Below are positions 4,332 through 56,569 of a DNA stretch of 64,000 nt, piece after piece (within the stretch, counting starts at the first letter, position 1; each line of letters opens with the position of its first letter). This stretch comes from Candidatus Omnitrophota bacterium. GTDB taxonomy: Bacteria; Omnitrophota; Gorgyraeia; Duberdicusellales; 4484-171. The stretch is taken from positions 19,014 to 83,013 of the forward strand of contig PMCS01000009.1 in the NCBI GenBank assembly GCA_003154195.1. Reading direction: 5' to 3'. Both the position numbers and the translations under genes were made by a program. The notes under the pieces are model-generated. The model was not told the DNA's origin, did not search any database, and saw only the letters and a program-made list of their open reading frames with translations.

Positions 4332-4332
4332 T

Positions 4333-5413: not shown

Positions 5414-5478
5414 AAGCTATTTTTTAAAATGCTAAGGATTATGGTTTGACGGCATAAATCCCGGACGTTAAAAAAAGT

Positions 5479-6513: not shown

Positions 6514-6551
6514 AATTACCTACGGGTGATTTTATCCCGTTAGCGAGAATA

Positions 6552-6677: not shown

Positions 6678-6691
6678 TAATCTTAATACTA

Positions 6692-9940: not shown

Positions 9941-10042
9941 AAATATCCCGCTTCGTGATCACGCCGAAATTCTCTACGATAGTTTCGGCGTACTCGCGGG
10001 ATTTCGCTAAACAAAAAATTTTTGTGCTCAAGGAGGTTAGAA

Positions 10043-10720
10043 ATGGAAAGACATGTCGACCAGGAACTAAAAGAACTGAATAAAGATATCTTAAAGATGG
10101 GCGCTTTAGCAGAGGAAGCCATCTACAAATCCATCGAAGCGTTGAAGAACAGGGACAGGGAAATGGCCGGGAGTGTCATAGAGAATGATTCCAATATTGA
10201 TAAATTGGAATTAGCCATAGATGAAAAGTGTATTGATTTGATAGCGCTCTACCAACCTATGGCCAAGGACCTCCGTTTTATTACAACCGGCATGAAAATA
10301 AATAGTGAATTGGAAAGGATAGCGGATATTGCAGTAGATATTGCGCAACGTACGCTTGAAATAGTAGACAAACCCCTTTTAAAGCCGCTGATTGATATAC
10401 CTAAGTTAACCGCTATTGCGCAAAACATGGTAAAGATGTCCATCGATGCGTTTGTCAAGGGCGATATTGCCTTAGCGAAAAAAGTTTTATTATCTGATTC
10501 CGAAGCTGATCAGCTTCGGAATGTTATACAAAAAGAGCTTATTGAAGATTATATGGTTAAAGACGCAGCTACTGCGCCAAGGGCTGTCCAGCTGTTGTTG
10601 ATCGCTCGTTTTTTAGAGCGCATATGCGATCATGCGACGAATATCGCAGAAGACGTGATTTACATGGTTCAGGCAGAAGTTGTGAGGCATCACCCCGAGA
10701 AATTAAAGAATGGAAAATAA
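10043..10720 (+). CDS. phoU: PhoU (operon 2)
   Basis: Two PhoU repeats; RBS aaggagg before ATG 10043. Confidence 0.85.
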   Translation: MERHVDQELKELNKDILKMGALAEEAIYKSIEALKNRDREMAGSVIENDSNIDKLELAIDEKCIDLIALYQPMAKDLRFITTGMKINSELERIADIAVDIAQRTLEIVDKPLLKPLIDIPKLTAIAQNMVKMSIDAFVKGDIALAKKVLLSDSEADQLRNVIQKELIEDYMVKDAATAPRAVQLLLIARFLERICDHATNIAEDVIYMVQAEVVRHHPEKLKNGK

Positions 10721-10805
10721 AAACTATTGATTTAGCTTATCATGTATCCAGATATATTTTTTGTACCGTGCGCTGTTTTGTCTAAACAAATGTTTTCTTT
10801 TTTCC

Positions 10806-10865
10806 CATCCGCGCAAGCGGATAGCGGATATTTATTTTTTACTGCGTAAAAAATAAATATTATAT
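10806..10865 (+). promoter_or_regulatory. Conserved bipartite element, copy 1: GC hairpin (catccgcgcaagcggat) plus AT-rich palindrome (atttattttttac-tgc-gtaaaaaataaat); terminator-like
   Basis: Near-identical copies at 16000-16048 and 47659-47717. Confidence 0.4.
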
Positions 10866-10953
10866 TAGTTGAAAGTTTTTTGGTTATAGGGTATCATATT
10901 ACCACTCATATTTAAAACTTTATAATATAGTATTCATACATCTTGGGGCAAAA

Positions 10954-11652
10954 ATGTTTATTCGTATACTGTCTTCATTATCATTCTGTATATTTTTTGC
11001 TTCCTGCGCCGCGACCCAAAACACGATACAAAATAACTCTGCCGTACGCGCCGGGGTGCCAAGCATTGAGCCTTATAATTCTGCCCTTTCTTCTTGCGAT
11101 CATCCTGCCTTAGAAAAAACTCAATATTACATCGTAAAGCCGGGCGATTCCTTGAGGCTGATCGCGGAAAAGTTTAATCTAAGCATAGAAAAAATAATCG
11201 AAAAAAATCATATCGCTAAACCCGGTAATTTACGCGCCGGCCAATTAGTGATTATCCCCGGCACTGAATATGAAAAAGTAAACGCAGATTTCTTTTGGCC
11301 GATAAACGGCAAAATCGTAAGTTTTTATGGTGAGAATACCGACAGCATAAAGAACAAAGGGCTGAAAATAAAAACAACTTCTCAGGCCAACGTAAAAGCG
11401 GCGCGGGATGGAGAAGTGATTTTTTCCAACTATCTCAAAGGGTGGGGAAAAACCATCATCCTGAAACATAACGGCAATTTTTACACGGTCTACGCGAATT
11501 TAATCGACACCGCGACAAAAGAAGGCTCAAGCGTAAAAAGAGGCGAAGTTGTGGGGAAATTAGCGCTGAATAAAAAAAATGGCGAAGATACCTTATATTT
11601 TGAAATAAGAAGGGGGTGCCTGCCGCAAGACCCCATGAAGTATCTCCGGTAA
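10954..11652 (+). CDS. LysM-domain / M23-family (NlpD/EnvC-like) peptidase-like lipoprotein
   Basis: Signal with Cys, LysM (YYIVKPGDSLRLIAEKFNLS…), C-terminal M23/LytM-type domain apparently lacking catalytic His motifs; sigma70-like promoter ttgaaa-17-tatcat upstream. Confidence 0.7.
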   Translation: MFIRILSSLSFCIFFASCAATQNTIQNNSAVRAGVPSIEPYNSALSSCDHPALEKTQYYIVKPGDSLRLIAEKFNLSIEKIIEKNHIAKPGNLRAGQLVIIPGTEYEKVNADFFWPINGKIVSFYGENTDSIKNKGLKIKTTSQANVKAARDGEVIFSNYLKGWGKTIILKHNGNFYTVYANLIDTATKEGSSVKRGEVVGKLALNKKNGEDTLYFEIRRGCLPQDPMKYLR

Positions 11653-11767
11653 AATGAAACAAGGGGATTAGGGCATCGGGGGATTAGGGCATCGGGGGAT
11701 TAGGATTTGGAGATTAGGATATCCCGCATCGGGTTTTTTCCTGATTCCCCAATTTCCCAATTCCCAA
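11653..11767 (+). repeat. Tandem G-rich 16-bp repeats (GGGGATTAGGGCATCG x2 plus degenerate copies) followed by cccaatt repeats
   Basis: Direct repetition visible in the sequence. Confidence 0.5.
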
Positions 11768-13414
11768 ATGCTGATACCCTGGTTTCCTGATATCCTAAAA
11801 AGAAATTACTATACTTTTAGACTCGGCAAGGTTGGTATAAATTTTATGGATGAAAAATTGTTGTGGGAAACCAAGTTTTCCACATTAGATAAAAGAATAA
11901 AGGATTTTAGCCTGGGGTATCGGCAGAATATCGCGATCTTGGGAAATGACCAGGAAGAAATATCCTACCTTCTGGAAAGCTACCTTGAACAAAACAAATC
12001 TGACGATACTGTTTATATCCATATACCGGCTTCCTATATAAATAAAAAAGAATTCTTTAAACGAGTGGCTTTAGATATATTAAGCAGCTACTCCCATAAC
12101 GAAGGAAACCTTGACAGCTTAATAAACTTAAACAATCCCTCCTTAACCGCTACGACAAATTTTATCCGTAATACCCTCAAAAAAAATACCTTAACGCTGC
12201 TGGATACGCTGGAAGTTATCAATAAATTTCTGAACGAAAGTAAACGTAAAAGTATTCTCATCGTAGAGGACTTTTTAAAAATGGCAGAACTGTTCGGCAA
12301 CTGCTTCAAAGATTTCTCCAAATTTATAATGCTGCAACGCAACTGCATGATCATTCTTGCCTCTTCCTGCACAAGAGAAACACAAAGAATATTTTCCGAT
12401 GATTTAAACTTATTATTCGGAAATTTCGAAAAAATACTTTTGGACGAAAATACTTTTTTTGATAACTATATGCATCTGAAGCGTAAACTCCAGCCGATAA
12501 ATCCCTCGCCGCTCTTTATTTCTTTTTTTGTGAATATTCTCGGCTCAAACGTCATCTATTACGATGTCATTGCCGAAAAGATAAAAGCCGGCTATACCGA
12601 TAACGCCGAGGAAAAAGTAATCGTGGAAACGTTGACCAATTCTCTTTACGCGAAAGAAACATATTTATTCCAAAAAATGCTTAAAAAAGTAGATTTGCTT
12701 AAAGAAAGATTTAAGGATTCCGACTTAACCATAAAAATACTTATTGCCCTGGGAGAAGGTTACCTGAGAAAAGATGAGCTGGTTTCGTTAAACCTTTGCG
12801 AGCGTAAGCTTCTGGTTTCCAAACTTAACAAATTATGCGATTGCAGTTACGTTGAAGCGTGCGGCAATATTTATAAAATACAGGACCCGCTGTTTGCTTT
12901 CTGGATTTCACGCGTTTTCAAAATACATTTTCTGTCTTACGCCGGCAACGCCAAAACCCGGGCGGCAGCATGGGAAAAAATGCTGCAACAGGATATTTGT
13001 TTATTTAAGGAAGACTTTTTTAAAGATAAAATTAAACGGATACTGGAATTACTCTCTTATTTTAAAGACGATACTTTAAAAGTAGGTAAAGACCGCTGCA
13101 AACTTCCCTGCGTAGAAAAAACAAAACTTTTGTCTTATTCGGATACGAACATCCACTTCTTGATCGGCGAAGGCCGGGAAATAATTTTTGCGGGGATCAA
13201 AGAAAAAAATATCACCGACAACGACGTGATCGAATTTATTGAAAAGAGTAACGGCATCAAAGGCAAAGGCGTAAAAAAAATACTGATGTCGTTGGAAAAA
13301 TTTACGCCGGAAGCTCAGCTTATCGCAAAGAATAACCGGTTGATCACCTGGGATATAAACGAAATAAACCATTTGATGAAACTGTACAATAAGCCGACAA
13401 TCCCCATCAATTGA
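11768..13414 (+). CDS. Large hypothetical protein (548 aa) with no recognisable catalytic motifs; true start may be ATG 11846
   Basis: Long ORF with typical codon use; no Walker or other motif recognised by eye. Confidence 0.5.
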   Translation: MLIPWFPDILKRNYYTFRLGKVGINFMDEKLLWETKFSTLDKRIKDFSLGYRQNIAILGNDQEEISYLLESYLEQNKSDDTVYIHIPASYINKKEFFKRVALDILSSYSHNEGNLDSLINLNNPSLTATTNFIRNTLKKNTLTLLDTLEVINKFLNESKRKSILIVEDFLKMAELFGNCFKDFSKFIMLQRNCMIILASSCTRETQRIFSDDLNLLFGNFEKILLDENTFFDNYMHLKRKLQPINPSPLFISFFVNILGSNVIYYDVIAEKIKAGYTDNAEEKVIVETLTNSLYAKETYLFQKMLKKVDLLKERFKDSDLTIKILIALGEGYLRKDELVSLNLCERKLLVSKLNKLCDCSYVEACGNIYKIQDPLFAFWISRVFKIHFLSYAGNAKTRAAAWEKMLQQDICLFKEDFFKDKIKRILELLSYFKDDTLKVGKDRCKLPCVEKTKLLSYSDTNIHFLIGEGREIIFAGIKEKNITDNDVIEFIEKSNGIKGKGVKKILMSLEKFTPEAQLIAKNNRLITWDINEINHLMKLYNKPTIPIN

Positions 13415-24438: not shown

Positions 24439-27400
24439 CTACTTCCCCCACGCCTTCCCCGCCAATTCATCAATCGTCTCCTTCGCCGAGACATCCTTCA
24501 TAAACGTAATCACGAATTGCAGGCGGTCGAAATTGGGATTCAGGGGACTGCTGGTTATGGCTTTATCCAGGCCTTCACCTTTGGTTTCCAGGTTAAAGTT
24601 ATTAGCGGTGACGTCGATGCCGCCTAAAGGCGTTGAGCCGGTTGTGTCCGTTAGGTCTGTTGAGCCCGTTAAAGGAAGCGGCGAGGCGGCGGATTTTGTC
24701 TTAACCGTTGCTACCGGGGAATTTCCCCGGCCCATAAATTGACCATTGAAAGGGGTTACTTCTTCCTCGAGACTTCTATGCAATGCGGAATATTTCTCTG
24801 CCTGCTTTTTGTTCCCTACAAGCCGATAAAGATCGGCCATATTTTTATAGTATTCCAAAATAGATACGGCACGCGAGTAACCGATACCTTTTTTACCCCC
24901 TGTATAATGATAATCAGTGGGTACCAACTTCTCAAGTATAGCAAGAGCCTTGATGGCCGCGGAACGCTCCTGGTTCGGTTCACCGATTTCATGGTAAAGC
25001 TCTACCAGTTTTAGATAGTCAAAAACTAAACCTTTTTTTTCTTCATTAAAAGGAGTTGGCGAAATTTTTTCATCGGCGTTTCGATAAACCGCGGGAATCT
25101 CCCGTTCTATTATTTTGATTTTTCTGGCATATACCTCGGCCTCTTTCTCCGGCATATGAGTATCCCTATACAGTTCCCGAAAACCGTCAAGAACATCAAG
25201 GGAGTCCGGCGATAATTCCAAAGCCTTGCGCAACGCACCTAATGCCTTATTGAAATATGTCCCTTCTGTCAAAAACCGCTCGGCGCCATGGATAATCCCT
25301 ATACTGGTATAAGTTACGCTTATTCCCATATAAGCATGAATATTATTTGGGTCAGATTTCAGCGCTTTCCGGTAAAGTTCCAATTGTTCTGGATATGGGG
25401 TGATATAGGCGTCATCTCTGTGCGCTACGGCCAGATAAGAACGTATCATCCCATCGTTAACACCCAATCTTATCTGTTGGGGCAAATCCTGCCTTATCGC
25501 GTCGTTGGCTTTTAGATACACCCCGTAGGGATGGAATAAATCGTAGAGAATAAAAGGTTGGCTTATTCCTACTTCAGAATTAGCAAGATCGACAATAACA
25601 GAACGCCCGCCTGGCAATCTTACCAGGGAAGCAATATGCAGTGTCCAGCCTCGCCGGTTGTGCCGGACAACTTCCATCGGTATCGCATCGTACCTTAAAG
25701 CCCTCGCGAGAACTAAAAATAATTGGGTTCCGCCGATGCAATTAGCTTTTTTCACCTCTAAAACGACATTCAAATCAAAAGGATATACCCCGGATTCAAT
25801 ATTAAATTTACCCTTAATCGCGGCGTATAATTCCTTAAGCCTTCCTGCCTCGTCCCCACCCGGGCTAAAGCGATAAGTATTTAAATCGGGAAACAAATTA
25901 ACTAATTCATGAACGATAGCTTGCCGTGATTTTTTATCGTAACCGAAATCCTCAAGTTGCTTACGCATCTCAAACTGCTGCCGTACATTTTGCAAAGCCC
26001 CCTCATGTTCGGAATCGCCCGCGCGATTAGCCGCGGTAATGGGCTCAGATCGATAACTCCGCTGCGGCGGTTGAGACGAAAGTAACTCATGGCCGGCGTC
26101 GGTAAGGCCCAAAATCCGCAGCTTGTCTTTCACTACTTTTCCCGCTACTGCTGCCACTCCCGCCAACAAACCGAATAAAAAAAGACCCCTGCGGGACATA
26201 TCTACCGGCGAGGCAGCGGCTGGCGAAAGTTGGTCTCTCGGAAAAGTTATAATAACAGTCGTGCCTATTACATTTTCATTGCTGACATCCATAATTCTTT
26301 TTCCATTTTGATATTGCGTAAACTGATATCCTGTATCGTTTTCTCGTTCGGAAACAAAAGAAATTTCGAAATTCCCTTTAGCTGTGTCTAAAATAGAACG
26401 TGTCGCATATCCTCGCCCAAGTGGTTTTGAGGTTCTATATTCGCCATTAACCCAGCTCTGGAAAATATCTTTTCTTATCCCTGCTCCATTATCAGATAAG
26501 ATTACCCTTGTTCCACCAGTCTGAGAATCACGCTGTATAAAAAATGATATTGCAGCTTTTCCAGAAACCTGCCCACGAACACTATCATCAGTAATATTAT
26601 CAATTCTCTCATAGACAGCATCAACAGCATTATCCACAAGATGGCCAACAATACTGGCCACACGCCCCTTGTCAACCGATGAAAGCTGGCTGTCTCTTAA
26701 AATAGTCAGAATATCTGCGACGATTTTTTTATCACCTGCGTTTCCTAAATATATTTGGCGAGCATCTGTAGAAAGCGCGCCTGGCGGCATATATGGGAAC
26801 TTCTCAGTAAAAATAGGGAAATTAATCGAAGCAGCGCCGTTGGCCGCAATAGATCCCGCCGCCGTCGGCGAACCTAACGGCACGGCCCGTTCTGGCCGGA
26901 ACAGGGTTGGCGAGGCGGCAACTTTTTTTCCAAAAGGAATCGTCCAGGTTACAGTAGTACCGGCGGTAATGCGGTGTCCCACGCTAACCTCATTATGGGA
27001 ACGGTATCTTCTCATGACATGCGCGCCGTCTTGGTGATGATAGGTATCGAATTCGATTGTCCCGCCGTAGCGGTTGACCAGCGCATCACCGTAATAGTTA
27101 CGCACATCGGTACCTACTCTTCCCAATGTCTCATCTTCCCTGCGCTTTTTTGTGCTAACAGGTTCATCGCTGAAAAGACGGCCCAGGGTGTCGACGGTTA
27201 TCCCTATACCGTTATCGCTAACTTTTATCACCAGACGGTCGTGCTCCACGCTAAAGCTGACTTCTATCATCCCTTTATATTCAGTTTCTTGCCTGGTCGC
27301 TTCCTTCGCGATACCGTCAATCGCATTATCCAGGGCCCCGCTTAAAGAAATTTGGAATGTACCATACTCATCATCACCTATCCATAAAACGGGATAATCG

Positions 27401-28926
27401 AGAGCAAGACGCAACGGCGATATTCCATGCAGTTGACTTGCGATGTCGGGAAATATTCCTAATAATACTCCGGACAAATTATTCGCTATGCCAAGTAAGT
27501 CATGAGTTTTCGTATGGGGCTTGATGATAAAATCAAAGGGTGGTAATTTTTTTTGCCACGGGATGTTTACAGATTTGGCTTTGCCTGGCGTTTTTTGGCC
27601 TGCATCGGGCGAAGATACGCTTTTATCCTTGTCTACAGCTCCTAGCGCTCTGCCTACTTCTTTACCTGTTAACTCTTCCTGCGTCAAAAACGCAGACCCA
27701 ACAGCCTTTAGTCTCCCTAAGCACGAATTTGCTGCCGGGTTTACGCCGACCTGCAAATTTAATTCCACGCGCATTGTTTCTCTAAAAGCCTCCGCTCCAA
27801 ACACCATCCCTCCAGAAGTATACCTGCGCCTTACCGGGTTTTTCCCCAATCGTTCTTCTTTCTTTACGCAGTTATATACTCCTTTTTTATAGGCTTCTAC
27901 GTAGAGGTTAAAAATCTTATCTTTTACGTTTTTGTCCTTTAGGTCTATCCCGGATATCTTCCCCTTATCGATGTAGGATTTATAGAAGGAATCTTTGAAT
28001 TTCTTACGGAACCAGACGGCGAGGACGAGAGAGTTATAGATCTGGCGCAGCGTGGCAAAGTTCTTGCCGTGGTTGACTTCCTGGTTGACTTCAGGGAGGA
28101 TGACTTCTTTGAAAACCCTTGACGCAATTTCTTCAGTTTTTCCTTTTTCGTCCTTCGTCCTTCCTCCCTCGTCCTTCTTTGTTTTTTCATCCTTCATCCC
28201 TCGTCCTTCATCCTTCGGTAGATTACGCTGCTGCGCCACGTAATCCCTCTCATGCATGACTTTTAAGCTCGCCTCGAGGACAAACGCCGTGTCTCCTTTC
28301 TCATAGACGACGCTCTTCTGAGGCATGACCCAAACCTTGTTATAAGTATTAACATCCTTCATCCCTCGTCCTTCATCCTTCATTACTGCCGTTACGCTGT
28401 CCCAGTATCTCTTTCCCAGTTCTGTTCCGGGGTAGGTCAAAGAAGAAACGAGTTGCTTCAGGCAGTAATCCTGGCCTAACAGATCTTTGCCGAGATCGGT
28501 CAGGGCTAAATTGTCTGAAGCAACACGTTCTCCTTCAAACGGTGACAGGTTGACCCATAACTCTTCCTGGGGAAGAGTTAACCCTGCCAGAAAATACTTG
28601 ATCAGACGGTCGGCTTCTTCTTTAGATACGTCATCTTTATTGGCAGTATCGACGAGGAATTCGATATTGAGAGGGTTTTTAGGATTAAAACGTAAGCCCT
28701 TCAAGACCGGGTAAGAGAATTTTTCGGATACTGAAAGGAGTTTGGTGGGTAGAGGGAGATTATAGACACTAGACGCCGGTTGCGGCGCGGGCACGACTTC
28801 GGATAAAGCCAGTGGGCTGAGCGAAGAAAAAAATACCGCCAAGGCCAGAAATACGGCGATAGCTTTGAAACCCGAGGACGTACGGCAATACGCCCCTCCG
28901 TTTTTTCGGGGGATTATTTGGGTCAT
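24439..28926 (-). CDS. 1495-aa multidomain membrane protein: TM, KDEG-repeat low-complexity segment, two GHKL/HATPase_c-like domains, second TM, transglutaminase-like Cys-His-Asp protease-like domain, TPR repeats
   Basis: N-box/G1/G2-like blocks (LDNAIDGI…VSDNGIGI…RYGGTIEFDT; HLVDNAVDAV…LSDNGAGI…GRGYATRS); KANCIGGTQLFLVLARAL…WTLHIA…VIVDLAN; TPR-like LELYRKALKSDPNN…. Confidence 0.65.
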   Translation of the reverse strand: MTQIIPRKNGGAYCRTSSGFKAIAVFLALAVFFSSLSPLALSEVVPAPQPASSVYNLPLPTKLLSVSEKFSYPVLKGLRFNPKNPLNIEFLVDTANKDDVSKEEADRLIKYFLAGLTLPQEELWVNLSPFEGERVASDNLALTDLGKDLLGQDYCLKQLVSSLTYPGTELGKRYWDSVTAVMKDEGRGMKDVNTYNKVWVMPQKSVVYEKGDTAFVLEASLKVMHERDYVAQQRNLPKDEGRGMKDEKTKKDEGGRTKDEKGKTEEIASRVFKEVILPEVNQEVNHGKNFATLRQIYNSLVLAVWFRKKFKDSFYKSYIDKGKISGIDLKDKNVKDKIFNLYVEAYKKGVYNCVKKEERLGKNPVRRRYTSGGMVFGAEAFRETMRVELNLQVGVNPAANSCLGRLKAVGSAFLTQEELTGKEVGRALGAVDKDKSVSSPDAGQKTPGKAKSVNIPWQKKLPPFDFIIKPHTKTHDLLGIANNLSGVLLGIFPDIASQLHGISPLRLALDYPVLWIGDDEYGTFQISLSGALDNAIDGIAKEATRQETEYKGMIEVSFSVEHDRLVIKVSDNGIGITVDTLGRLFSDEPVSTKKRREDETLGRVGTDVRNYYGDALVNRYGGTIEFDTYHHQDGAHVMRRYRSHNEVSVGHRITAGTTVTWTIPFGKKVAASPTLFRPERAVPLGSPTAAGSIAANGAASINFPIFTEKFPYMPPGALSTDARQIYLGNAGDKKIVADILTILRDSQLSSVDKGRVASIVGHLVDNAVDAVYERIDNITDDSVRGQVSGKAAISFFIQRDSQTGGTRVILSDNGAGIRKDIFQSWVNGEYRTSKPLGRGYATRSILDTAKGNFEISFVSERENDTGYQFTQYQNGKRIMDVSNENVIGTTVIITFPRDQLSPAAASPVDMSRRGLFLFGLLAGVAAVAGKVVKDKLRILGLTDAGHELLSSQPPQRSYRSEPITAANRAGDSEHEGALQNVRQQFEMRKQLEDFGYDKKSRQAIVHELVNLFPDLNTYRFSPGGDEAGRLKELYAAIKGKFNIESGVYPFDLNVVLEVKKANCIGGTQLFLVLARALRYDAIPMEVVRHNRRGWTLHIASLVRLPGGRSVIVDLANSEVGISQPFILYDLFHPYGVYLKANDAIRQDLPQQIRLGVNDGMIRSYLAVAHRDDAYITPYPEQLELYRKALKSDPNNIHAYMGISVTYTSIGIIHGAERFLTEGTYFNKALGALRKALELSPDSLDVLDGFRELYRDTHMPEKEAEVYARKIKIIEREIPAVYRNADEKISPTPFNEEKKGLVFDYLKLVELYHEIGEPNQERSAAIKALAILEKLVPTDYHYTGGKKGIGYSRAVSILEYYKNMADLYRLVGNKKQAEKYSALHRSLEEEVTPFNGQFMGRGNSPVATVKTKSAASPLPLTGSTDLTDTTGSTPLGGIDVTANNFNLETKGEGLDKAITSSPLNPNFDRLQFVITFMKDVSAKETIDELAGKAWGK
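28150..28390 (-). repeat. In-gene tandem 7-mer repeats (tccttca/tccttcg on the + strand) encoding (M)KDEG(R)G repeats
   Basis: Seen in the sequence at 28150-28240 and 28355-28390. Confidence 0.5.
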
Positions 28927-31494: not shown

Positions 31495-32853
31495 TTACCT
31501 GACTTCTTCATAAAGTAAATATTCCGCGTCAATCAATCCCTGGCGATAAGCATTCTCTAATGAGTCCTTGAATGTTTGCATACCTTCGTTTTTACCGGTT
31601 TGGATAATCGACCGGATCTGCGCCCAATCGCCGTTTCTGATTATGCTTTTAACCGCGTCGGTAGAAGTCACGACTTCCGAAATAAGAGTAAACCCGCTCT
31701 TATCCATTCGCGGCAGTAACAGCTGGGTCGTCACGCCTCTTAGAACCAGCGCCAACCGGGAAAGCATATGGCGCTGCACCTCGGGAGGGAAAAAAGATAT
31801 TACCCGATCCAGGGCTTGAGTGGAATTAGCCGCGTGTAAGGTAGTAAATACTAAAATGCCGCTTTCGGCCGCGGTAATCGCTACTTCCATGGTTGCCTGG
31901 TCTAAAATTTCTCCGATAACCAATACGGTCGGGTCCTGGCGAAGGGCATTTCTCGCCGCGTTGGCAAAAGAAAGAGTGTCTACCCCTATCTCTCTTTGTT
32001 TTATAATACACTTTCGATCGGTATGCAAATACTCGATTGGGTCTTCCAGGGAGACGATTACCCCCTTTTTTTCTTGATTATATAGCTCCACTAAAGAAGC
32101 GATGGTCGTACTTTTACCGGAACCGGTCCTTCCCGCGATGATAATCAATCCGCTGTTATTATTCAACCATTTCTCGACCACGGGAGGAACTCCGATCTCC
32201 GAAGGTAAAGACACCCGATAGGGTAAAAGCCGGAATACCGCTTCGACTTTACGCCGCTGCATATGCATATTTACGCGGAACCGGATCTCTTTGCTGTAAG
32301 TATAAACAAAATTCAGTTCTTTTTCCGCCAAAAACTTCTTATGCCGATCCCTATCCAGCATCCCAAACAATAAACACTGCAGGCTATGCGAGTCAAAAAC
32401 TTCGCCTCCGGCGGTAACCCACTCTCCGATCTTCTTCATCACCGGAGGATAGCCTACGGTAAAATATATATCGATGACATTCTTTAAATTAACCCCCTGC
32501 AAAACCTTTTTTATATTAGCCCGGCGCAGGAAATCGTCTAGCTTGCCTTTATCCTCATCGTTGATTTTATCAATCTGGACGCCGACGATATATTCCTTAT
32601 CATCACTAACCTCGATTCGTGCCACGCGCCCTTCGAAAGAAATTTTATCCGCATCCGAAACAAGCATAGTAATTTTGAGCAGACTGCTCAACTCCATTAG
32701 TTCCTTACAAACAAAACCTACCCCCAGCAGCCCCATGTCTTGTCCGTAGACCTTAACCGCGATACCCAATTTACCGCTATCGAGAATTTTTTCATATTGC
32801 ATGGGAAAACGTATCAGCGTTCTTTCTTCCCGGCGATTATTTTTTCCTTTCAT
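31495..32853 (-). CDS. PilT/PilU-family type IV pilus retraction ATPase with an N-terminal PilZ-like domain (PilZ-PilT fusion); ORF is open to TTG 32895
   Basis: Walker A GRTGSGKST, PilT core (…LVIGEILD…TLHAANS…); N-terminal RREERT (RxxxR) plus D.S..G-like region; SD gggagg before ATG. Confidence 0.75.
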   Translation of the reverse strand: MKGKNNRREERTLIRFPMQYEKILDSGKLGIAVKVYGQDMGLLGVGFVCKELMELSSLLKITMLVSDADKISFEGRVARIEVSDDKEYIVGVQIDKINDEDKGKLDDFLRRANIKKVLQGVNLKNVIDIYFTVGYPPVMKKIGEWVTAGGEVFDSHSLQCLLFGMLDRDRHKKFLAEKELNFVYTYSKEIRFRVNMHMQRRKVEAVFRLLPYRVSLPSEIGVPPVVEKWLNNNSGLIIIAGRTGSGKSTTIASLVELYNQEKKGVIVSLEDPIEYLHTDRKCIIKQREIGVDTLSFANAARNALRQDPTVLVIGEILDQATMEVAITAAESGILVFTTLHAANSTQALDRVISFFPPEVQRHMLSRLALVLRGVTTQLLLPRMDKSGFTLISEVVTSTDAVKSIIRNGDWAQIRSIIQTGKNEGMQTFKDSLENAYRQGLIDAEYLLYEEVR

Positions 32854-32900
32854 TCCCCCTCCCATTATTGGCAGCGGCCTGTCAAAAACAAACAAATTTC

Positions 32901-35980: not shown

Positions 35981-38900
35981 TTATTTGCCCTTTTCTTCCT
36001 CCGCTTTCCTTTTCCTTTCTTCGATTACCCTCTGGGTAACTTCATAAGGCACTTCCGTATACTTGGCAAATTCCATGGAACAGCTGGCGCGGCCGCTGGA
36101 AAGTGAACGCAATGCCGTGGTGTAACCGAATAATTCCGAAAGGGGCGCCTCCGCGGAAATCACCTTCTGGTTATTCCGTGAATCCATGCTTAAAACTTTA
36201 CCCCGATGCGAGCAGACATTGCCGACAACAGCTCCGGCGTAATCTTCCGGCGTGGTTATCTCTAGTTTCATCTGCGGCTCAAGCAATACCGGCGCGCACT
36301 TGGTAAACGCCTGGCGGAAACAGCCGATGGCCGCCATCTTAAACGCTAATTCCGAAGAATCGACCTCATGGAACGAACCGTCCACAAGATTAGCCTCAAT
36401 ATCCGCTACCGGATACCCGGCGAGGCCGCCCCTCCGCATCGCTTCGACTAACCCTTTTTCCACAGCGGGGATAAAGTTCCGGGGGATCGCCCCGCCGACA
36501 ATACTGTTTTTGAATTTAAACCCCTCGCCGCGGGCGGCGGGTGAGAATTCGATAACCACATGGCCGTACTGGCCGCGGCCGCCGGATTGTTTAACGTGTT
36601 TGTATTCTTCGGAAGCCCCCTTACCGATCGATTCCCGGTAAGCCACCTTAGGCTTTCCCACTACCGCTTCGACGCCGAATTCATGCTTCAGCCGGTCCAC
36701 GATGATTTCCAAGTGGAGCTCGCCCATACCGGTCAAAATCGTTTCCTTGGTTTCTTCATCGGATTGAACCATAAACGTAGGGTCTTCTTCCGCCAGCTTC
36801 GCCAGTCCTTTAGCCAGTTTATCCTGGTCGGCGCGGGTCGCCGCGGCAATGCTGAGCGATACCACCGGCGTGGGAAATTTTATCGACTCAAGCAACACCG
36901 GATACTCGACATCACAAAGCGTATCGCCGGTAATCGTACTGCTCAGGCCGACTGCGGCGGCGATTTCTCCGGCAAAAACGCTGTCCCGGGATTCGCGCTG
37001 GTTGGCGTGCATCTGGAAAATCCGGCCAATCCGCTCTTTCTTATCTTTGGTCGCGTTCAAGACATAGGATCCGGCTTCCATTGTCCCGGAATAAACCCGG
37101 AAATAGACCAGCTTACCCATATGCGGATCGGTTTGGATCTTAAATGCCAGGGCGGTAAAGGGCTCATCATCCTTAGCGTAGCGAATGATTTCTTTTTCCG
37201 GATCGTTGACGTCATGCCCCTTGATCGGAGGCAGATCCAGGGGCGAAGGGAGATAATCGATAACCGCGTCCAAAAGTTTTTGCACGCCTTTATTTTTAAA
37301 TGACGCTCCGCAGAGAACCGGCACTGCCTTGCCGGCTATCGTCCCCTTGCGAATCGCGGCTTTTATTTCTTCGTTAGTTATCGTCGACTCCGCTTCGAGA
37401 TATTTTCTGGCTAAATCGTCGTCGAGGGAAGCCGCTTTCTCAATCATTTTGTGGCGGTATTCGACCGCCTTATCTTTAAGCTCCGCCGGAATTTCTTCAA
37501 TATTGTAGTCCTTGCCCAGAGAAGTATCTTCATAAATATAGGCTTTCATCTCCAGAAGGTCGATAATGCCTTTAAAATTATCTTCGGCGCCGACCGGGAT
37601 AACCAGCGGTATGGCGTCGGCGCCTAATTTATCCTCGATTTCTTCGAGGACCTTAAAGAAATCGGCGCCCAGACGATCCATTTTATTCACAAATGCCACT
37701 TTCGGAACATGATACTTTTCCGACTGGCGCCAGACCGTTTCCGACTGCGGCTCGACGCCGCCTACAGCGCAGTAAAGCGCCACCGCGCCGTCAAGGACAC
37801 GTAAACTGCGCTCCACTTCCACGGTAAAATCCACATGCCCCGGCGTATCGATAATATTGATACGGTAGTTGTTCCAAAAACAAGTCGTGGCGGCACTGGT
37901 GATGGTAATCCCCCTTTCCTGCTCCTGCTTCATCCAATCCATCGTCGCCTTGCCGTCATGGACCTCGCCGATCTTATGGGAACGGCCGGTATAATAAAGA
38001 ATACGCTCGGTAGTCGTGGTTTTCCCGGCGTCGATGTGCGCCATAATCCCGATATTGCGCAATTTAGAAAGATCGATATGCGCTTTAGCCTCTTTGGCGT
38101 CTTTCGCGGTTTTATCTTTCGGCGCTTTTTCTTCGGGAGAAGCCGTTTCTTGCGGTTTTTGCTCCGGCGCGGCGGCTTCCGGACTGGTTTTGTCTTCCTG
38201 AACCGGCGGCAGCTCTTCCGGTTCTGCCGCTTCCGGCGCGGCAGTCGCTGCCGAGACCGCCGGAACTTCGGCTTCGGCCGCAGGAGCGGCCGGAACATTT
38301 ATCTTTTCCGGCGCGGTCGAAATCGGCGCCGGTTCTTGTTTATTTTCTTCCCGGGGTTCAACCGAAGTTTCCCCGCCGGCCGTCTCACCCGTTTCCGCCT
38401 TTGGTCGAGGTTCGGCCGGCACGGCTTCCTTTTTTTCCTCTTCGGGCGCGTTTTCCGCGGCCGGAGCCGCGGCCGGAACCGCCGGCGGAACCACCGACGA
38501 TACGGACTCAACCTTAGCTCCGCCGTTTACCCCTTCCGGCTCCGGGCCGGCGACAATCGTTTCTGCCTCAACTTTTTCTTCTTTTCCCTGAGGCTTCGCT
38601 TCTTTCAATTCCGGCTCGACTTCCGTTTTAACCGCGGCCGGCAAAACCGCCGCCTTTTCTTCTTTTCGGCCGAAAACTTCTTTAGCGATCTTATCTAATT
38701 CGCTGGGCGGCTCGGCGTTTATGGTTTCGGCTTCCGGCTCTTTTTTCCTTGCTCCCGGTTCCGGCCGTAACTGCTTAAGTGTTTCCTCTTTTTCTTTTAA
38801 GCGAGTTAACAGGAAATCGTACTCTTCTTTGGAAACCCAGCTGCTGGCGGTACTCTTCTTTTTAAAGTCGCCGACGATCGTGCTGAGTTCTTTCACCTTG

Positions 38901-39451
38901 ATGCCGGCGTCTTCAACTTCTTTCAGGTGTTTTTTTATCTGGGCTTTGAGAAGGTTACTCTCCTCGGCCAATTCTTTATTTTTTGCTTCCAGCGGCGCCA
39001 CTCGTTCCTGCGTTTCGCGTATTGTTTTAGACAACTTGACATTTTGAGAAAATTGCTCGTCTCGCTCTTTCTCTTTACCAAGCACCCTCTCCTGCAATTG
39101 AGCGTTTTCTTTTTTAAGCTGCGCCTGGCGTTCCTCGAATTCCTCTTTTTTTACTGTCCCCTCTTTCAATGCCGCTTCCCTTCCCAGGGCCGCGGCCAGC
39201 TCAACTTTAACCTTAGCGGCTTCGAGCCGGGAAGAATCCAATTCCGATTGTATCGCGGCGATTTGTTCTTCCGGCTTTATTTTGGGACGGGCTTCTTTTT
39301 TAAATAACGTTAGTTTGGCTTTCGTTTCGGCAGGCTTAGGCGCCTTTTTCTTTTCCCGGCTACCCATCCCTCGGGAAGGTATAAAAAAAACGGCAAGCAA
39401 AGCTCCCACACATAGAATAACAAATAAACCTATCAAAAACATCCCATCCAT
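35981..39451 (-). CDS. fusA: Elongation factor G homolog with a ~460-aa N-terminal extension (TM helix, coiled coil, Pro/Ala/Glu-rich linker)
   Basis: Complete EF-G (G1 AHIDAGKTT…DTPGHVDF…NKMD, domains II-V). No canonical start codon at the expected EF-G N-terminus; the same frame is open 1.4 kb further upstream. Confidence 0.7.
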
Positions 39452-39564
39452 ATCGCCTCAAACCTCTTCGCTTCAGAGCAATGGAGCTAAGCATCACCAT
39501 GTAGCATCGGGACAAGTTTTATTGCCCGGCGTTAATTTTACTATGTCAAAATTAGTACTAAACT

Positions 39565-39658
39565 CATTGCCCTTCGACTCGTAGTTCGACTTTGTTCACT
39601 ATCCCTCGAACATCCCGAGCGAAGTCGAGGGACTGTCGCTCGCTCATGGTTTCACCGC
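39565..39658 (+). repeat. Copy of the CCTTCGACTCG…CGCTCGCTCA dispersed repeat family
   Basis: cattgcccttcgactcg…gtcgctcgctcatgg. Confidence 0.4.
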
Positions 39659-39735
39659 CCCCATAGATACCTATATAAAGAAGCGGGATCCCGCCAAGGG
39701 CGGGAAATTTTTCCGGCTGTATCCAGCCGGAAAAA

Positions 39736-40653
39736 TTAAATATATTCCACCATCCGCTCCAACGCGGTTTTTGCCTGCTTGATGATTTGCTCATCAAGCT
39801 CAATTTCATAGATCTCATGGCTTAAAGCCCGATGCAATTCGTTCAAGGTTGTCTTTTTCATATTTATACAGGTACGCGCGGTTCCCAGAGAATAGAATTC
39901 TTTTTGGGGATTTTCTTTTTGCAGCCGATAGACAAGCGCCTCTTCGGTTCCAATGATAAACACTTTAGCGCCCGATTCTTTGGCACGCTTTAACATCCCC
40001 GCCGTAGAAACAACATAGTCGGCCTTTTCCAATATTTCACTGCGGCATTCGGGATGCGCGAGGACTTCCGCCTCGGGAAAATTTTTCTTCGCTTCTTCTA
40101 AGTCTTTTAAGGTAAATTGTTCGTGCACATAACAAAAACCCTGCCAGACAATAATTTCTTTTTCCGGAACATTTTTCTTAACCCACCAGCCTAAATTCTT
40201 ATCCGGCACAAAAATAACTTTTTTTGCCGGGATGCCCCGGACGACCTGTATAGCGTTGCTGGAAGTACAACATACATCGCTCAGCGCTTTTACGCTTGCC
40301 GCAGTATTGACATAGCTGACCACCCAGGCGCCGGGATGTTTCTTTTTTAATTCCTCGACTTCTTCCGGTTCAATCGTATCCGCCAGGGGGCATCCGGCCT
40401 CTAAAACCGGTAAAATAATTCTTTTTTGCGGCGAGAGTATCTTGGCGGTCTCCGCCATGAATTTAACCCCGCAAAAAATAATTAGCTTCTCGACGAGCTT
40501 GGCGGAAATCCGGGAAAGCTCCAGTGAATCCCCCAGGTAATCGGCGACATTCTGGATATCGGGAATCTGGTAATTATGCGCCAGGATTACCGCGCCTTTT
40601 TCTTTCTTCAGCCTCTGGATTTCGGCGTTTAACACTTCCCGATTAATGCTCAT
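39736..40653 (-). CDS. nadA: Quinolinate synthase NadA
   Basis: Full-length NadA-like (…ILAHNYQ…FCGVKFMAETAKIL…). Confidence 0.85.
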   Translation of the reverse strand: MSINREVLNAEIQRLKKEKGAVILAHNYQIPDIQNVADYLGDSLELSRISAKLVEKLIIFCGVKFMAETAKILSPQKRIILPVLEAGCPLADTIEPEEVEELKKKHPGAWVVSYVNTAASVKALSDVCCTSSNAIQVVRGIPAKKVIFVPDKNLGWWVKKNVPEKEIIVWQGFCYVHEQFTLKDLEEAKKNFPEAEVLAHPECRSEILEKADYVVSTAGMLKRAKESGAKVFIIGTEEALVYRLQKENPQKEFYSLGTARTCINMKKTTLNELHRALSHEIYEIELDEQIIKQAKTALERMVEYI

Positions 40654-55161: not shown

Positions 55162-55968
55162 TTACAAATCAGCCCTGTACTTCGCAATCAACGACGGAAC
55201 GACCGTATCGGCGTTAGCAATCAAATCGGCCTGGGCGTCTTCGAATAAAAACGGACGCAATTCTTCCGCCTGCTTTTTTAATTCCGCCGGCGAAAAGCTC
55301 TTAACTCTTTTAGCAATAACCTCCAGCGGGTTTTCCTTGATCCCCAACGAAGCCAGGACTTTCCGGTTAATCGGATAATTTTGGGAAAGCATAAAAATTA
55401 TATCGTACAGGTGCCGCGCCCGCGTTTTTTTAACCAGGGCGTCGATTTTATCGGCAAACAGCGCGCTCTTGTCGGTGCAGCCGCAGGTAAAAATCTCCCC
55501 AAAGCCGTTGATTACTTCGCTTTCCCTGACGATTTTCCATTTGGGCGTATTCGTCTCAATTTTAATGACAATCCCGGCTTTCTTCGAATACGCCGATTTA
55601 ACATTATACGCTTTTTCGATTTCCGGAAAGATTAAATTCCCCGCGAAAATATTACGCCAATGCTTAAAATTAACATCGGCAATAATGTTAGAACGGGCCA
55701 GCTCGGTTTTTACCTTATCCAGCAAGGTTTCAAACTGCCCCCCGGAAAGCTCATCGCAGTTAAAATCAAGGTCTTCAGAAAACCGTTTTAGATTATGCAC
55801 CAGCCGCAGGTATGTCCCGCCGGTAAAATACAGATGCTTACCGGTATCGGCCTTATAAATCTCTTTTAAAATCAATACCTGCAAATATTCGCGCAATACC
55901 CCGCGCATCTTATTACCCGGCATGCCCCGCAGTTTTGCCTGTTCGGTTAAACTCTCATAGGTCAGCAT
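55162..55968 (-). CDS. AbiEii/AbiGii-family nucleotidyltransferase toxin
   Basis: …REYLQVLILKEI…LYFTGGTYLRLVHNLKRFSEDLDF… family signature. Confidence 0.75.
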   Translation of the reverse strand: MLTYESLTEQAKLRGMPGNKMRGVLREYLQVLILKEIYKADTGKHLYFTGGTYLRLVHNLKRFSEDLDFNCDELSGGQFETLLDKVKTELARSNIIADVNFKHWRNIFAGNLIFPEIEKAYNVKSAYSKKAGIVIKIETNTPKWKIVRESEVINGFGEIFTCGCTDKSALFADKIDALVKKTRARHLYDIIFMLSQNYPINRKVLASLGIKENPLEVIAKRVKSFSPAELKKQAEELRPFLFEDAQADLIANADTVVPSLIAKYRADL

Positions 55969-56569
55969 AAATCACCTCTTCTACGTCGATATTATACTGC
56001 TTAGCGTATTTTTCCAGTTTCTTCTTATTCATCCCCGCGATAATGTTTTTATCCATCCGCTCTTCGCCTAAGATTGCCCGCTTCTTCCCGCGAAAGGTTT
56101 TAAAATGGACAAAATCGATTAAAGCCTTTTCCGGTTCGGCAATCAGGACATCGAAATCTCCCTGCCGTTCCACATAATAACCGCCAAACGCCTCTTTTTT
56201 TATCGTCCGGTAAATAAATAACCCGTGCAGGTTCCTGAATTTACGGGTAGGCTTGGTAGTAATCGAAGTCACCGCCATCGATACTTCCGGAATAACGCTG
56301 TAATGGGATAAAGCCGTCTCCAGGGAAACATACGACGGCGCGTATAAGCGGTTGGCAATATGCATATCGGAAATAGCATATTCCTCAGGATAAATCAATT
56401 CATAAAAATCTCGCTTCAATGCCCGGATAAACCCCTTTCCTTTCCAGCGATAAAGCAGTTTTTTAAGGCTCTCTTTTTTCTCCCGCGGGTAAAAAGAAAG
56501 CACATCCTCGCTGGTGAAAAGATAGTATTTTTTTCCCGATAATGTTTTATAAAATTCTTCGAATTTCAT
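55955..56569 (-). CDS. AbiEi-family antitoxin / transcriptional regulator
   Basis: Sits directly upstream of and overlaps AbiEii; AbiEi-like sequence. Confidence 0.65.
   Translation of the reverse strand: MKFEEFYKTLSGKKYYLFTSEDVLSFYPREKKESLKKLLYRWKGKGFIRALKRDFYELIYPEEYAISDMHIANRLYAPSYVSLETALSHYSVIPEVSMAVTSITTKPTRKFRNLHGLFIYRTIKKEAFGGYYVERQGDFDVLIAEPEKALIDFVHFKTFRGKKRAILGEERMDKNIIAGMNKKKLEKYAKQYNIDVEEVIYADL

Follow-up and report, generated by a model that had tools for sequence, protein, structure and literature searches.

A predicted membrane-anchored paralog of elongation factor G in Candidatus Omnitrophota

On the reverse strand of a 64-kb stretch of DNA from a Candidatus Omnitrophota bacterium, the whole of which is referred to here as the window, we found a gene (35981-39451) that joins a hydrophobic N-terminal helix, a long charged helix and a disordered linker to a complete elongation factor G (EF-G), all in one 1156-aa open reading frame with an ATG start and a stop codon within the span. 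Few proteins are as conserved or as well studied as EF-G, which is regarded as diffusing freely in the cytoplasm. We lean towards the view that this gene, which we call the long form, encodes a membrane-anchored EF-G paralog specific to a clade of Candidatus Omnitrophota, and that the protein would carry out normal EF-G activity beside the membrane. The same architecture is present in 47 protein clusters and, among species-representative genomes, in about 60 genes, nearly all of them titled Candidatus Omnitrophota, the homologs that share this layout being 997-1181 aa long. Such recurrence far exceeds chance, and it provides the orthologs with the same extension that an earlier note on this DNA had proposed to look for.

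The reading frame and its start

GAGG-type Shine-Dalgarno-like motifs, recognized as consensus matches only, lie 5-15 nt before the ATG of the 1156-aa frame (39456-39467, reverse strand; ...AAGAGGTTTGAGGCGAT-ATG). The two peptides cited by the earlier note were located in this frame, at residues 6-24 and 453-472, and its statement that no start exists at the usual EF-G N-terminus is borne out, since the place of the canonical Met, 10 residues before the RNIGI motif, is taken by a non-start codon. Residues 435-472 contain just two start-type codons, TTG (Leu464) and ATG (Met470), both of them devoid of a Shine-Dalgarno-like motif; just before the G domain, the TTG that opens the codons of Leu464 to Asn466 (38054-38062, reverse strand) is the only one. 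The proposal that this TTG might serve as an internal start found no support, given the missing motif and the presence of a start-type codon at that place in only 12 of 58 homologs. Among the 58 long-form genes compared, moreover, an in-frame ATG no more than 25 codons from RNIGI occurs in five, and a start-type codon close to the canonical Met position in 11; an internal start that would release a free EF-G is thus rejected at the level of conservation, although this single gene may still possess one.

A Shine-Dalgarno-like motif precedes the start in 28 of the 58 long-form genes, as against 26 of 28 genes for the normal-length EF-G of related genomes (the short form). With this low proportion, some start calls in the long form may be wrong, or initiation may differ. 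Promoter and terminator scans returned nothing at the junction between linker and EF-G, with no promoter-like site there on the coding strand, and an Rfam search near the gene yielded no RNA element. The neighbors of the gene are nadA and an HD-domain gene.

Predicted membrane anchor, stalk and linker

The protein begins with a hydrophobic helix (residues 2-25; 39377-39448, reverse strand), as the earlier note had recognized, with a Kyte-Doolittle maximum of 3.09 over 19 aa from residue 6 and an AlphaFold2 (AF2) helix at residues 2-22. Such a helix opens 46 of the 47 long-form clusters with a full-length extension, being weak in the remaining one (P0066), and it is also found at about 54 genomic loci; across the family it starts at residues 1-9, with a charge of 0 or -1 ahead of it. 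In the protein of the window the helix is preceded by a charge of -1 and followed by one of +5 within 20 residues; this 20-residue stretch carries a net positive charge in 37 of 46 clusters. Topology was judged by hand with the positive-inside rule: given the lack of positive charge before the helix and the basic cluster after it, the segment should insert as a signal-anchor, N-terminus out and C-terminus in, leaving the rest of the protein cytoplasmic. Membrane insertion, this topology and the cytoplasmic site of the EF-G module are accordingly predictions from sequence.

Beyond the putative anchor lies a basic juxtamembrane segment (residues 26-59; 39275-39376, reverse strand), with a net charge of +5 over residues 29-50, where AF2 gives pLDDT values below 50 and models disorder at residues 24-58. 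It leads into a single continuous K/E-rich alpha-helix (residues 60-202; 38846-39274, reverse strand), about 21 nm long and predicted by AF2 with a pLDDT of 95-99 in the domain model, in which our family alignment (A1) shows conserved RREEW-like, KEKELQxEFSKNVxL and KHxIEK motifs. The helix is followed by an invariant Trp motif and a short second helix (residues 203-228; 38768-38845, reverse strand), modeled by AF2 as a break at residues 203-207 and a helix at 208-228. The family consensus of this motif is SEWVPKxEFNKLNEEYTxLEKELE; W205 and L214 do not vary in A1, and the motif stands at residue 188-208 in 55 genes. The earlier description of this region as a heptad-rich charged coiled coil stands as regards a very long, charged predicted helix (residues 51-228 contain 17% K, 17% E and 2% P), whereas its heptad character is only moderate, with an a/d hydrophobic score of 0.5-0.7 over residues 130-190. 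AF2 models the 143-residue helix as a monomer, and the PDB gave generic coiled-coil matches only. The helix may form a coiled-coil dimer or higher oligomer or, alternatively, persist as a stable single alpha-helix.

Between the stalk and the EF-G module lies an acidic linker rich in Pro, Ala, Glu and Lys (residues 229-454; 38090-38767, reverse strand). The earlier claim of a disordered PAE-rich segment agrees with its composition (15% P, 20% A, 21% E and a net charge of -21 over residues 229-457) and with AF2 pLDDT values below 50 across residues 232-453. In the 55 genes measured the linker spans 77-226 aa and its net charge is never positive, the 226 aa of the present protein being the longest. 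Apart from the EF-G N-terminal strand, no conserved sequence was found at the junction of linker and EF-G, and Pfam detected no domain in residues 1-457.

A canonical EF-G module

Residues 455-1156 (35981-38089, reverse strand) form a complete canonical EF-G, just as the earlier note had read it. Full-length matches to five Pfam domains (PF00009, PF03144/PF22042, PF14492, PF03764 and PF00679) fall within residues 463-1141, corresponding to the G domain (463-736) and domains II (764-847), III (859-933), IV (934-1052) and V (1055-1141). The EF-G model TIGR00484, whose cutoff is 659.4 bits, scores 1063.4, with positions 4-690 of its 691 aligned to residues 458-1147. By contrast, models of related factors stay below their cutoffs, namely, EF-G2 (NF009377, 493.7 against 890; NF058620, 510 against 1000) and tetracycline ribosomal protection protein (NF012153, 392.9 against 775). 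The motifs AHIDAGKTT (471), DTPGHVDF (535), NKMD (589) and SGGRGQYGH (956) are in place, as is the domain IV loop motif at residue 1024; the P-loop, the DTPGH of switch II with its catalytic His, and NKxD are kept in 60 of 60 long forms. In the AF2 model the EF-G fold begins at residue 464 and superposes on solved EF-G, the best Foldseek matches being solved EF-G structures, with target-normalized TM-scores of 0.87-0.94 at 53-55% identity for the free crystal forms. Identity to the solved EF-Gs of S. aureus and T. thermophilus is 53-58%. Only two sites in the module are fixed differently between the long form and the short paralog, so that the catalytic part gives no sign of specialization.

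Origin of the extension by gene fusion

With hmmsearch, a profile of the helical N-terminal part (the N-module) picked up numerous standalone proteins, about 210-235 aa in length, with E-values down to about 1e-25 at around 225 aa. This standalone family (alignment A2; for example, P0205, P0214, P0227 and P0271) has the same N-terminal transmembrane (TM) helix, basic stretch, long helix and two Trp motifs as the long form, including the terminal motif WV(A/S)KxEYxxLxxxLxEKEKE, and a comparison of N-module and A2 by hhalign gave a probability of 99.8% and an E-value of 2.9e-30 over 219 columns, that is, over the full length. Since the N-module is homologous to a standalone family of about 225 aa, a gene fusion gave rise to the long form. 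The A2 proteins stop just past this domain, while the long form continues with its 226-aa linker and EF-G; their genes sit between genes for a TPR protein and an aminotransferase, EF-G not being adjacent. The N-module is also found fused to MshEN and PilZ signaling domains. In Pfam, NCBIfam and PDB sequence searches the N-module gave only sub-threshold coiled-coil noise (UPF0242, SMC), and the standalone family had no match above threshold.

Integrity of the fusion

If an upstream coiled-coil gene and fusA had been joined by a frameshift, a misassembly or a wrong start call, the product would be an ordinary EF-G. This is how the homologs appear in NCBI, whose pipeline gives them as EF-Gs of 687-717 aa with internal Leu, Val or Met starts, and one homolog (L044) does look frameshifted. 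We nevertheless consider such an artefact close to untenable, as the sequence results already contradict it. The 1156-aa protein is identical on nine contigs from several assemblies, and the frame stays open across about 60 genomes, where indels between close relatives preserve it. Neither an internal start nor an internal Shine-Dalgarno motif is conserved, and the junction, as described above, carries no promoter-like site on the coding strand. Furthermore, dN/dS is 0.03-0.06 in EF-G, 0.06-0.17 in the TM and helical part and 0.13-0.38 in the linker, hence below 0.4 along the whole extension, and purifying selection acts on all three parts. The frame that the earlier note saw staying open upstream of EF-G is therefore a genuine fusion, and not the frameshift or assembly error that the note had named as its possible undoing.

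Paralogy and gene copy number

A normal-length EF-G of 697-698 aa lies a few kilobases from the long form in four cases (L019, L041, L046 and L047, the last of these being the complete chromosome CP070797.1), and the metagenome-assembled genome (MAG) CAZVQU01 carries long and short EF-G on separate contigs. These five documented co-occurrences all come from early-branching long-form lineages. In neighbor-joining trees the long and short EF-Gs form separate sister clades with moderate bootstrap values (69 and 78 of 100). The paralog part of the idea of a specialized paralog, put forward in the earlier note, is thereby supported in these relatives. Recent gene conversion between co-resident copies was rejected, their identity of 65-72% being near the cross-clade average.

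The genome of the window probably holds a second EF-G as well, to judge from its relatives. No second translational GTPase was found in the window or in about 7-10 kb past each of its edges. Among the matches listed (best 80 or best 120), the large derived long-form clade showed no short copy, and further pairing of short and long copies led only to the tandem cases already known; no short/long pair emerged from the proximity of NCBI accessions. Genes for S12, S7 or EF-Tu were absent within 10 kb of this gene and of about 90 related long- and short-form genes, and a scan of viral contigs with E. coli S12 for the str operon of Omnitrophota hit 14 unrelated loci. A 2026 preprint describes S12-S7-EF-G-EF-Tu operons in Omnitrophota chromosomes (10.64898/2026.06.07.730766). 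As the clade studied here lies away from S12, S7 and EF-Tu, there may be additional EF-G genes. Some long-form genomes also contain a third EF-G-like paralog.

A model for the tethered factor and its alternatives

We propose that a widespread membrane-anchored helical protein of about 225 aa became fused, through a low-complexity acidic linker, to a duplicated EF-G. The N-terminal helix would insert as a signal-anchor with all downstream parts in the cytoplasm, and the tether would combine a rigid stalk, about 21 + 3 nm long, with a flexible linker of 77-226 residues, giving the present protein a typical reach of some 35-40 nm from the inner membrane face. Given its fully canonical make-up and strong constraint, the EF-G module should work on ribosomes in the normal way, as a translocase or recycling GTPase, in this case limited to a shell beside the membrane. 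There it may raise the local EF-G supply for ribosomes producing membrane and secreted proteins, while the soluble paralog of normal length would cover the remaining cytoplasm. Both the activity of the tethered factor on ribosomes and the gain for membrane-proximal translation are inferred from the sequence. Cells of Omnitrophota are mostly ultra-small, the cultured species measuring 0.2-0.3 μm (PMC10066038), a size at which, by our estimate, a tether of 35-40 nm still covers a large share of the cytoplasm. These considerations suggest that Omnitrophota with the long form retain some of the machinery for protein synthesis at the cell membrane.

The same small cell size could make it feasible for a membrane-fixed EF-G to be the sole one. 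The short paralog would then have been lost here, perhaps in the whole derived clade, leaving the tethered protein as the only canonical EF-G, a scenario that we hold to be rather improbable. It draws on the missing second translational GTPase in and around the window, on the restriction of all five co-occurrences to early-branching lineages, and on the groundwater MAG sets rich in derived long forms (MFA5..., MDD...), which account for one of 16 sampled short-form accessions, this one not coming from a long-form genome. The long EF-G module retains all catalytic and domain IV motifs and is as constrained as the short paralog (dN/dS 0.03-0.06 against 0.04-0.08). Parsimony speaks for two copies, however, as at least three separate early-branching lineages hold both and the protein of the window branches beside them. 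In addition, short-form scores are spread evenly down to the cutoff among the best 80 and best 120 matches, implying that many short copies are unlisted, and both the str-type operons reported for Omnitrophota (10.64898/2026.06.07.730766) and the third paralog of some long-form genomes could point to EF-G genes elsewhere. That the derived long-form branch, possibly including this organism, has lost its soluble paralog and relies on the tethered protein as sole canonical EF-G is accordingly a doubtful proposition. If true, each elongation and recycling step would be bound physically to the membrane, for which bacterial translation offers no known precedent.

Two further readings assign the linker a role in release. 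The tether might sequester EF-G, or idle ribosomes with EF-G bound, as a regulated membrane store from which proteolysis of the linker could free them, much as LepA/EF4 has been proposed to be stored at the membrane in E. coli, or as in hibernation complexes. This would accord with a long, disordered and protease-accessible linker that is conserved as a feature though not in sequence, with an N-module that serves as a reusable membrane scaffold, alone or fused to MshEN and PilZ, and with a cultured relative that switches between ribosome-poor free cells and ribosome-richer attached cells (PMC10066038). Against it, neither a protease site nor a regulatory domain was found, the results fit an active factor as well as a stored one, and a mere store, while compatible with the very strong constraint on all catalytic and tRNA-mimicry motifs, would not require it; we regard this reading as unlikely. 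More improbable still is a precursor whose linker is cut to yield a normal EF-G in free form and, apart from it, a membrane-anchored helical protein resembling the standalone family. Both halves do exist independently in related genomes, as the standalone 225-aa family and the short EF-G, and the linker is disordered, but its length and sequence are free to vary, the junction has no conserved sequence beyond the EF-G N-terminal strand, and a fusion kept in about 60 lineages just to be cut has no obvious advantage.

Significance and comparison with known systems

Should the membrane-anchored paralog be confirmed, some bacteria would arrange translation elongation in space, with an EF-G built into the membrane by stalk and tether, and there would be a direct handle on factor supply to membrane-bound ribosomes. 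The helical N-module is, besides, a new reusable unit for predicted membrane anchoring that occurs alone, with EF-G and with MshEN and PilZ. Full-text literature searches and EF-G family surveys gave no description of this architecture, the surveys searched containing neither 'membrane' nor 'transmembrane' nor 'N-terminal extension'. EF-G is not mentioned in the 2023 Omnitrophota paper (PMC10066038), and the 2026 preprint (10.64898/2026.06.07.730766) refers to it solely as cargo of the str operon or of mobile elements, and never as an anchored protein. The trimming of long forms to plain EF-G by NCBI helped to keep the architecture out of view; it amounts to a systematic annotation error, which can also skew single-copy-marker statistics for Omnitrophota genomes.

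In layout the long form is reminiscent of TolA and TonB, which carry a TM anchor, a long helix or Pro-rich spacer and a globular head, span the periplasm and have positive charges before the TM segment. A single N-terminal TM anchor, an extended spacer and a functional C-terminal domain are common to all of them, but the charges of the long form predict the opposite orientation, with a cytoplasmic head, and no sequence similarity was detected. Two membrane-associated GTPases of translation or targeting also invite comparison. FtsY, the SRP receptor, carries an acidic A domain at its N-terminus, joined in some bacteria by a TM segment; LepA/EF4, reported as membrane-stored in E. coli, is not known to have an integral anchor. 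The long form resembles FtsY in its acidic, disordered N-terminal region; its N-terminal part is nevertheless not homologous to those of FtsY or LepA, it has no NG domain, and EF-G works in each elongation cycle, as opposed to the targeting role of FtsY.

With canonical EF-G (FusA; EFG I; TIGR00484), the long form shares the five domains, the G motifs and the domain IV loops. The canonical protein has about 700 aa, of which some 10 precede the first G-domain strand, whereas the long form has 454 extra N-terminal residues. The EFG I gene typically lies in the str operon, rpsL-rpsG-fusA-tuf (PMC3150367), while the long form lies outside it and belongs to a pair of closely related paralogs. Known EF-G duplicates include EFG II/EF-G2, spdEFG1/2, mitochondrial mtEF-G1/2 and Pseudomonas EF-G1A/1B (PMC3150367, PMC4342817, PMC3832671), and here too a second copy is kept, one lies outside the str operon and a division of labor is expected. 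These duplicates, however, are soluble and specialize in their catalytic or ribosome-contacting parts, whereas the long form adds a tether and leaves EF-G almost unchanged.

Organization and integrity of the long EF-G gene

The long EF-G form of the window is encoded by a single ORF of 1156 aa (35981..39451, minus strand), whose ATG start follows GAGG-type Shine-Dalgarno-like motifs at a distance of 5-15 nt. In Pfam, residues 463-1141 contain all five EF-G domains, and residues 1-457 have no match. The NCBIfam EF-G equivalog TIGR00484 aligned over nearly its full span (profile positions 4-690 to residues 458-1147; 1063 bits, cutoff 659), with the EF-G2, Tet-protection, RF3, LepA and BipA models all under their cutoffs. 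Compared with solved EF-G structures (53-55% identity), the predicted EF-G part gave target-normalised TM-scores of 0.87-0.94 for free crystal forms. In both sequence and fold, the C-terminal 700 residues belong to the EF-G/EFG I family, from which the protein differs in length, N-terminus and genomic context.

The N-terminal part consists of a hydrophobic stretch (residues 2-25), a basic one (29-50, net charge +5), a K/E-rich region with 2% Pro (51-228) and a linker of 15% P, 20% A and 21% E with a net charge of -21 (229-457). Two AlphaFold2 runs returned the same layout, namely, a helix (residues 2-22), disorder (24-58), one unbroken helix (60-202; pLDDT 95-99 in a domain-only model), an interruption at SSWVS, a second helix (208-228), disorder (232-453) and the EF-G fold from residue 464. 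The earlier note had described a membrane anchor, a coiled coil and a Pro/Ala/Glu-rich linker ahead of a complete EF-G, and this description is accurate, since the ORF, domain, composition and structure-model results agree with it, with the coiled coil refined to a predicted very long helix of moderate heptad character. The base composition of positions 36001-40000 is also distinctive, with a GC content of 0.51-0.53 over the gene versus 0.42-0.45 immediately downstream, and an AT skew down to -0.28 at 38-40 kb, the strongest anywhere in the window; this composition stems from the minus-strand extension, with its purine-rich codons for K and E and its GC-rich codons for Pro and Ala.

Codon inspection confirmed that the gene has no start codon at the canonical EF-G Met position. 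The sole start-type codons in residues 435-472 are a TTG (Leu464) and an ATG (Met470), both devoid of a preceding Shine-Dalgarno-like motif. Of 58 long genes, five have an in-frame ATG within 25 codons of RNIGI and 11 have a start-type codon close to the canonical Met; at the protein level, neither Met, Val nor Leu is conserved there when linker/EF-G junctions are compared. With no internal start conserved among these genes, the TTG put forward in the earlier note as an alternative start is not supported by conservation.

Nine contigs, from assemblies of several samples in ENA, NCBI and JGI, encode the identical protein, and orthologs with the same extension, which the earlier note had suggested looking for, are present. 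First, a protein search yielded 47 clusters (997-1181 aa) in which the extension measures at least some 300 residues; 46 of these clusters have a clearly hydrophobic N-terminal helix (that of cluster P0066 is weak). Second, a one-genome-per-species scan gave at least 79 loci, nearly all of them with Candidatus Omnitrophota in the title; about 54 of the 79 listed have a frame that is open for 300-440 codons 5' of the G domain, with an ATG and a hydrophobic helix first. Third, the EF-G module has a dN/dS of 0.03-0.06 among close relatives, compared with 0.06-0.17 in the TM and helical part and 0.13-0.38 in the linker; hence, the entire extension is translated and under selection. In one genome (CAZJJL01, locus L044, 81-443 and 591 onward), the long gene looks frameshifted, with the TM and first helical part in an ORF of their own, which reflects either an assembly error or a pseudogene. 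A Shine-Dalgarno-like motif precedes the start by 4-16 nt in 26 of 28 short EF-G genes versus 28 of 58 long ones (loci L001-L096); either some long starts are wrongly chosen or initiation differs.

Public databases contain these sequences, yet labelled plain EF-G. In NCBI, at least 13 protein records named 'elongation factor G' represent long-form genes cut to 687-925 aa; they start at internal codons, leaving about 1 kb before each without annotation, whereas the genes called by JGI on these contigs are complete at 993-1022 aa. For instance, P0058 (696 aa, NCBI) and P0029 (1022 aa, JGI) are one gene on one 214-kb contig, and P0047 (712 aa) and P0391 (993 aa) are a second such pair; loci L006 and L008, both on contig JBAZEN010000001.1, show the gene at locus positions 10001-13069 versus 10001-12091. 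This trimming partly explains why the architecture escaped notice.

Paralogy of long and short EF-Gs

The nearest relatives of the long forms are short EF-Gs of 695-702 aa, also present in Omnitrophota, which start with MxRxxxLxKVRNIGI. Neither S12, S7 nor EF-Tu was found within 10 kb of some 90 long or short genes, and four short-form loci viewed directly were likewise standalone. In four genomes (L019, L041, L046 and L047, the last being the complete 1.52-Mb chromosome CP070797.1), a short and a long gene share a strand and are separated by a few kb; the MAG CAZVQU01 has a short and a long gene on separate contigs of 146 kb and 599 kb, respectively. When the EF-G modules were placed in neighbor-joining trees with EF-Gs from other phyla as the root, the Omnitrophota genes formed one clade (bootstrap 100/100), divided into a long clade of 61 genes (69/100) and a short clade of 29 genes (78/100), with co-resident copies on opposite sides. 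Such copies are 65-72% identical, near the cross-clade average; the duplication is thus an old one, which gene conversion is not wiping out.

Evolution has been somewhat faster in the long clade (root-to-tip 0.234 versus 0.173 for the short clade; identity to outgroups 59.2% versus 61.5%). Fixed differences between the clades are limited to two positions, and 60 of 60 long forms retain the P-loop, DTPGH and NKxD motifs. The long form is thus a paralog set apart by its added N-terminal part and not by a remodelled EF-G. The paralog idea of the earlier note is supported in relatives by the five genomes with both genes and by their separate clades. Some short-clade EF-Gs carry other phylum titles (L066 in JAFGJP01, Candidatus Auribacterota; L028, Spirochaetes; P0304 and P0360, Aureabacteria), owing either to imprecise labels or to a standalone short type that reaches beyond Omnitrophota.

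All five documented co-occurrences are in early-branching long-form lineages, which the branch of the window protein adjoins, preceding a large derived clade. No new short/long pairs were seen in derived-clade genomes among the matches listed, in which short-form scores spread evenly to the cutoff. Several Omnitrophota chromosomes are reported to carry an S12-S7-EF-G-EF-Tu-S10 cluster (2026 preprint, 10.64898/2026.06.07.730766), and since the present clade is never near S12 or S7, further EF-G genes may exist. Two long-form loci (L087, 18571-20505, plus strand; L096, about 2709-4712, minus strand, divergent from the long gene at 5201-8299) also encode a third EF-G-like paralog (644-667 aa), a divergent one that shares 36-38% identity with the EF-G module of the window. 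It has a GHAQSGKT P-loop and intact domain IV loops; DAPGY or DTPGY replaces DTPGH, so that it lacks the catalytic His and resembles GTPase-deficient EF-G2-type proteins. IMG/VR contigs of 11-128 kb classed as viral (L103-L107) have an S12 gene, downstream of which tblastn detected no S7 or EF-G.

Origin of the N-terminal module

The first 190-230 residues of the long forms, which include the TM helix, a basic stretch and the motifs RREEWV, KEKELQxEFSKNVxL and KHxIEK, are well conserved, as is the motif SEWVPKxEFNKLNEEYTxLEKELE with its invariant Trp (residue 188-208 in 55 genes). The linker, free to vary from 77 to 226 aa, is always acidic or neutral, and among the 55 genes measured none has a longer one than the window protein. 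Searched with a profile of the N-terminal module, 1.84 billion representative proteins yielded 499 matches, many of them whole proteins (about 210-235 aa) that share the TM helix, the helices and the Trp motifs and stop right past the last motif. These members (e.g. P0205, P0208, P0214, P0227 and P0271, alignment A2) form a large, unnamed family with a TM helix, a long helix and two Trp motifs, which the module matches in profile-profile comparison with 99.8% probability (E 2.9e-30, 219 columns). Neither module nor family gave anything above threshold in Pfam, NCBIfam or PDB. The profile match and the standalone homologs therefore indicate that the long EF-G arose by fusion of a member of this membrane-anchored helical family, the donor of the extension, to a duplicated EF-G.

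In three standalone loci (L111-L113), an aminotransferase gene follows directly in all, a TPR protein is identifiable upstream in two, and no EF-G lies beside the gene. The same type of module is fused in P0204 (724 aa) to MshEN and PilZ (c-di-GMP-binding) domains, as defined by Pfam; it appears to be a reusable membrane scaffold. The C-terminal sequence of P0242 (614 aa) is close to that of P0204, and P0238 (719 aa) and P0203 (529 aa) seem alike, judged from their ends alone.

The EF-G duplicates EFG II, spdEFG1/2, mtEF-G1/2 and Pseudomonas EF-G1A/1B are soluble and differ in the factor itself (PMC3150367, PMC4342817, PMC3832671). Unlike the long form, which carries a predicted membrane anchor, none of them is reported with one. 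The words 'membrane' and 'transmembrane' are absent from the EF-G family surveys searched, and a full-text literature search returned no description of the anchored architecture. The long form represents a genuine domain architecture that is conserved and has so far been overlooked.

A possible role for an anchored EF-G

In the window protein and most homologs, no positive residue precedes the hydrophobic helix and a basic cluster follows it. By the positive-inside rule, this pattern would leave the short N-terminus outward and all the remaining protein in the cytoplasm, the sole compartment where EF-G can meet ribosomes. From standard values, we calculated about 4 nm for the juxtamembrane segment, 21 nm for the long helix (143 residues at 0.15 nm each), 3 nm for the second helix and an r.m.s. 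end-to-end distance of about 10 nm for the 226-residue disordered linker (contour about 86 nm), which therefore sum to a modelled typical reach of about 35-40 nm, or one to two ribosome diameters. Most Omnitrophota are ultra-small, the cultured species measuring 0.2-0.3 μm (PMC10066038); in a sphere of 100-150 nm radius, a shell of this depth would occupy roughly 55-75% of the volume. The simplest reading would be that active EF-G is held concentrated at the inner face of the membrane, where it may serve ribosomes engaged in co-translational insertion or secretion, the soluble paralog serving elsewhere. Such a spatial function is plausible but unproven, and we infer the membrane insertion, orientation, oligomeric state and activity of the long form. 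Very long membrane-anchored proteins are known from Omnitrophota (10.64898/2026.06.07.730766), and a tie between them and the anchored EF-G is attractive, if speculative.

That the long form could be the sole canonical EF-G of the window lineage agrees with the failure to find a second translational GTPase in the window and 7-10 kb on either side. However, the early-branching genomes that adjoin this branch do have co-resident short copies, and we regard this alternative as rather unlikely, the organism probably having another EF-G. The long form might instead act as a membrane store of EF-G or as a ribosome anchor, which we consider improbable, or as a precursor cut in the linker, which seems more doubtful still. 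An artefact is contradicted by the nine identical contigs, the conserved open frame, the dN/dS values and the lack of a conserved internal start, as well as by NCBI short records that equal full JGI genes on the same contig, making it the least credible reading by far.

Other genes in the window

At 769-4331 and 5662-9143 lie two phosphate-type ABC transporter sets in succession, each with a PBP_like_2 binding protein, permeases and an ATPase and each followed by a PhoU gene in the gene tables of matching contigs (L117). On the minus strand, a 1495-aa ORF (24439-28926) has HATPase_c (residues 530-665) as its lone Pfam match, and a 466-aa protein (31495-32895) has a T2SSE domain (type II/IV secretion ATPase) in addition to an N-terminal PilZ domain. 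A toxin gene for an AbiEii-type nucleotidyltransferase (55162-55968) overlaps a 204-aa ORF without family match (55955-56569), both on the minus strand, and together they probably constitute a type IV toxin-antitoxin pair. This pair is flanked by an ABC-F ATPase and an AddB-like nuclease.
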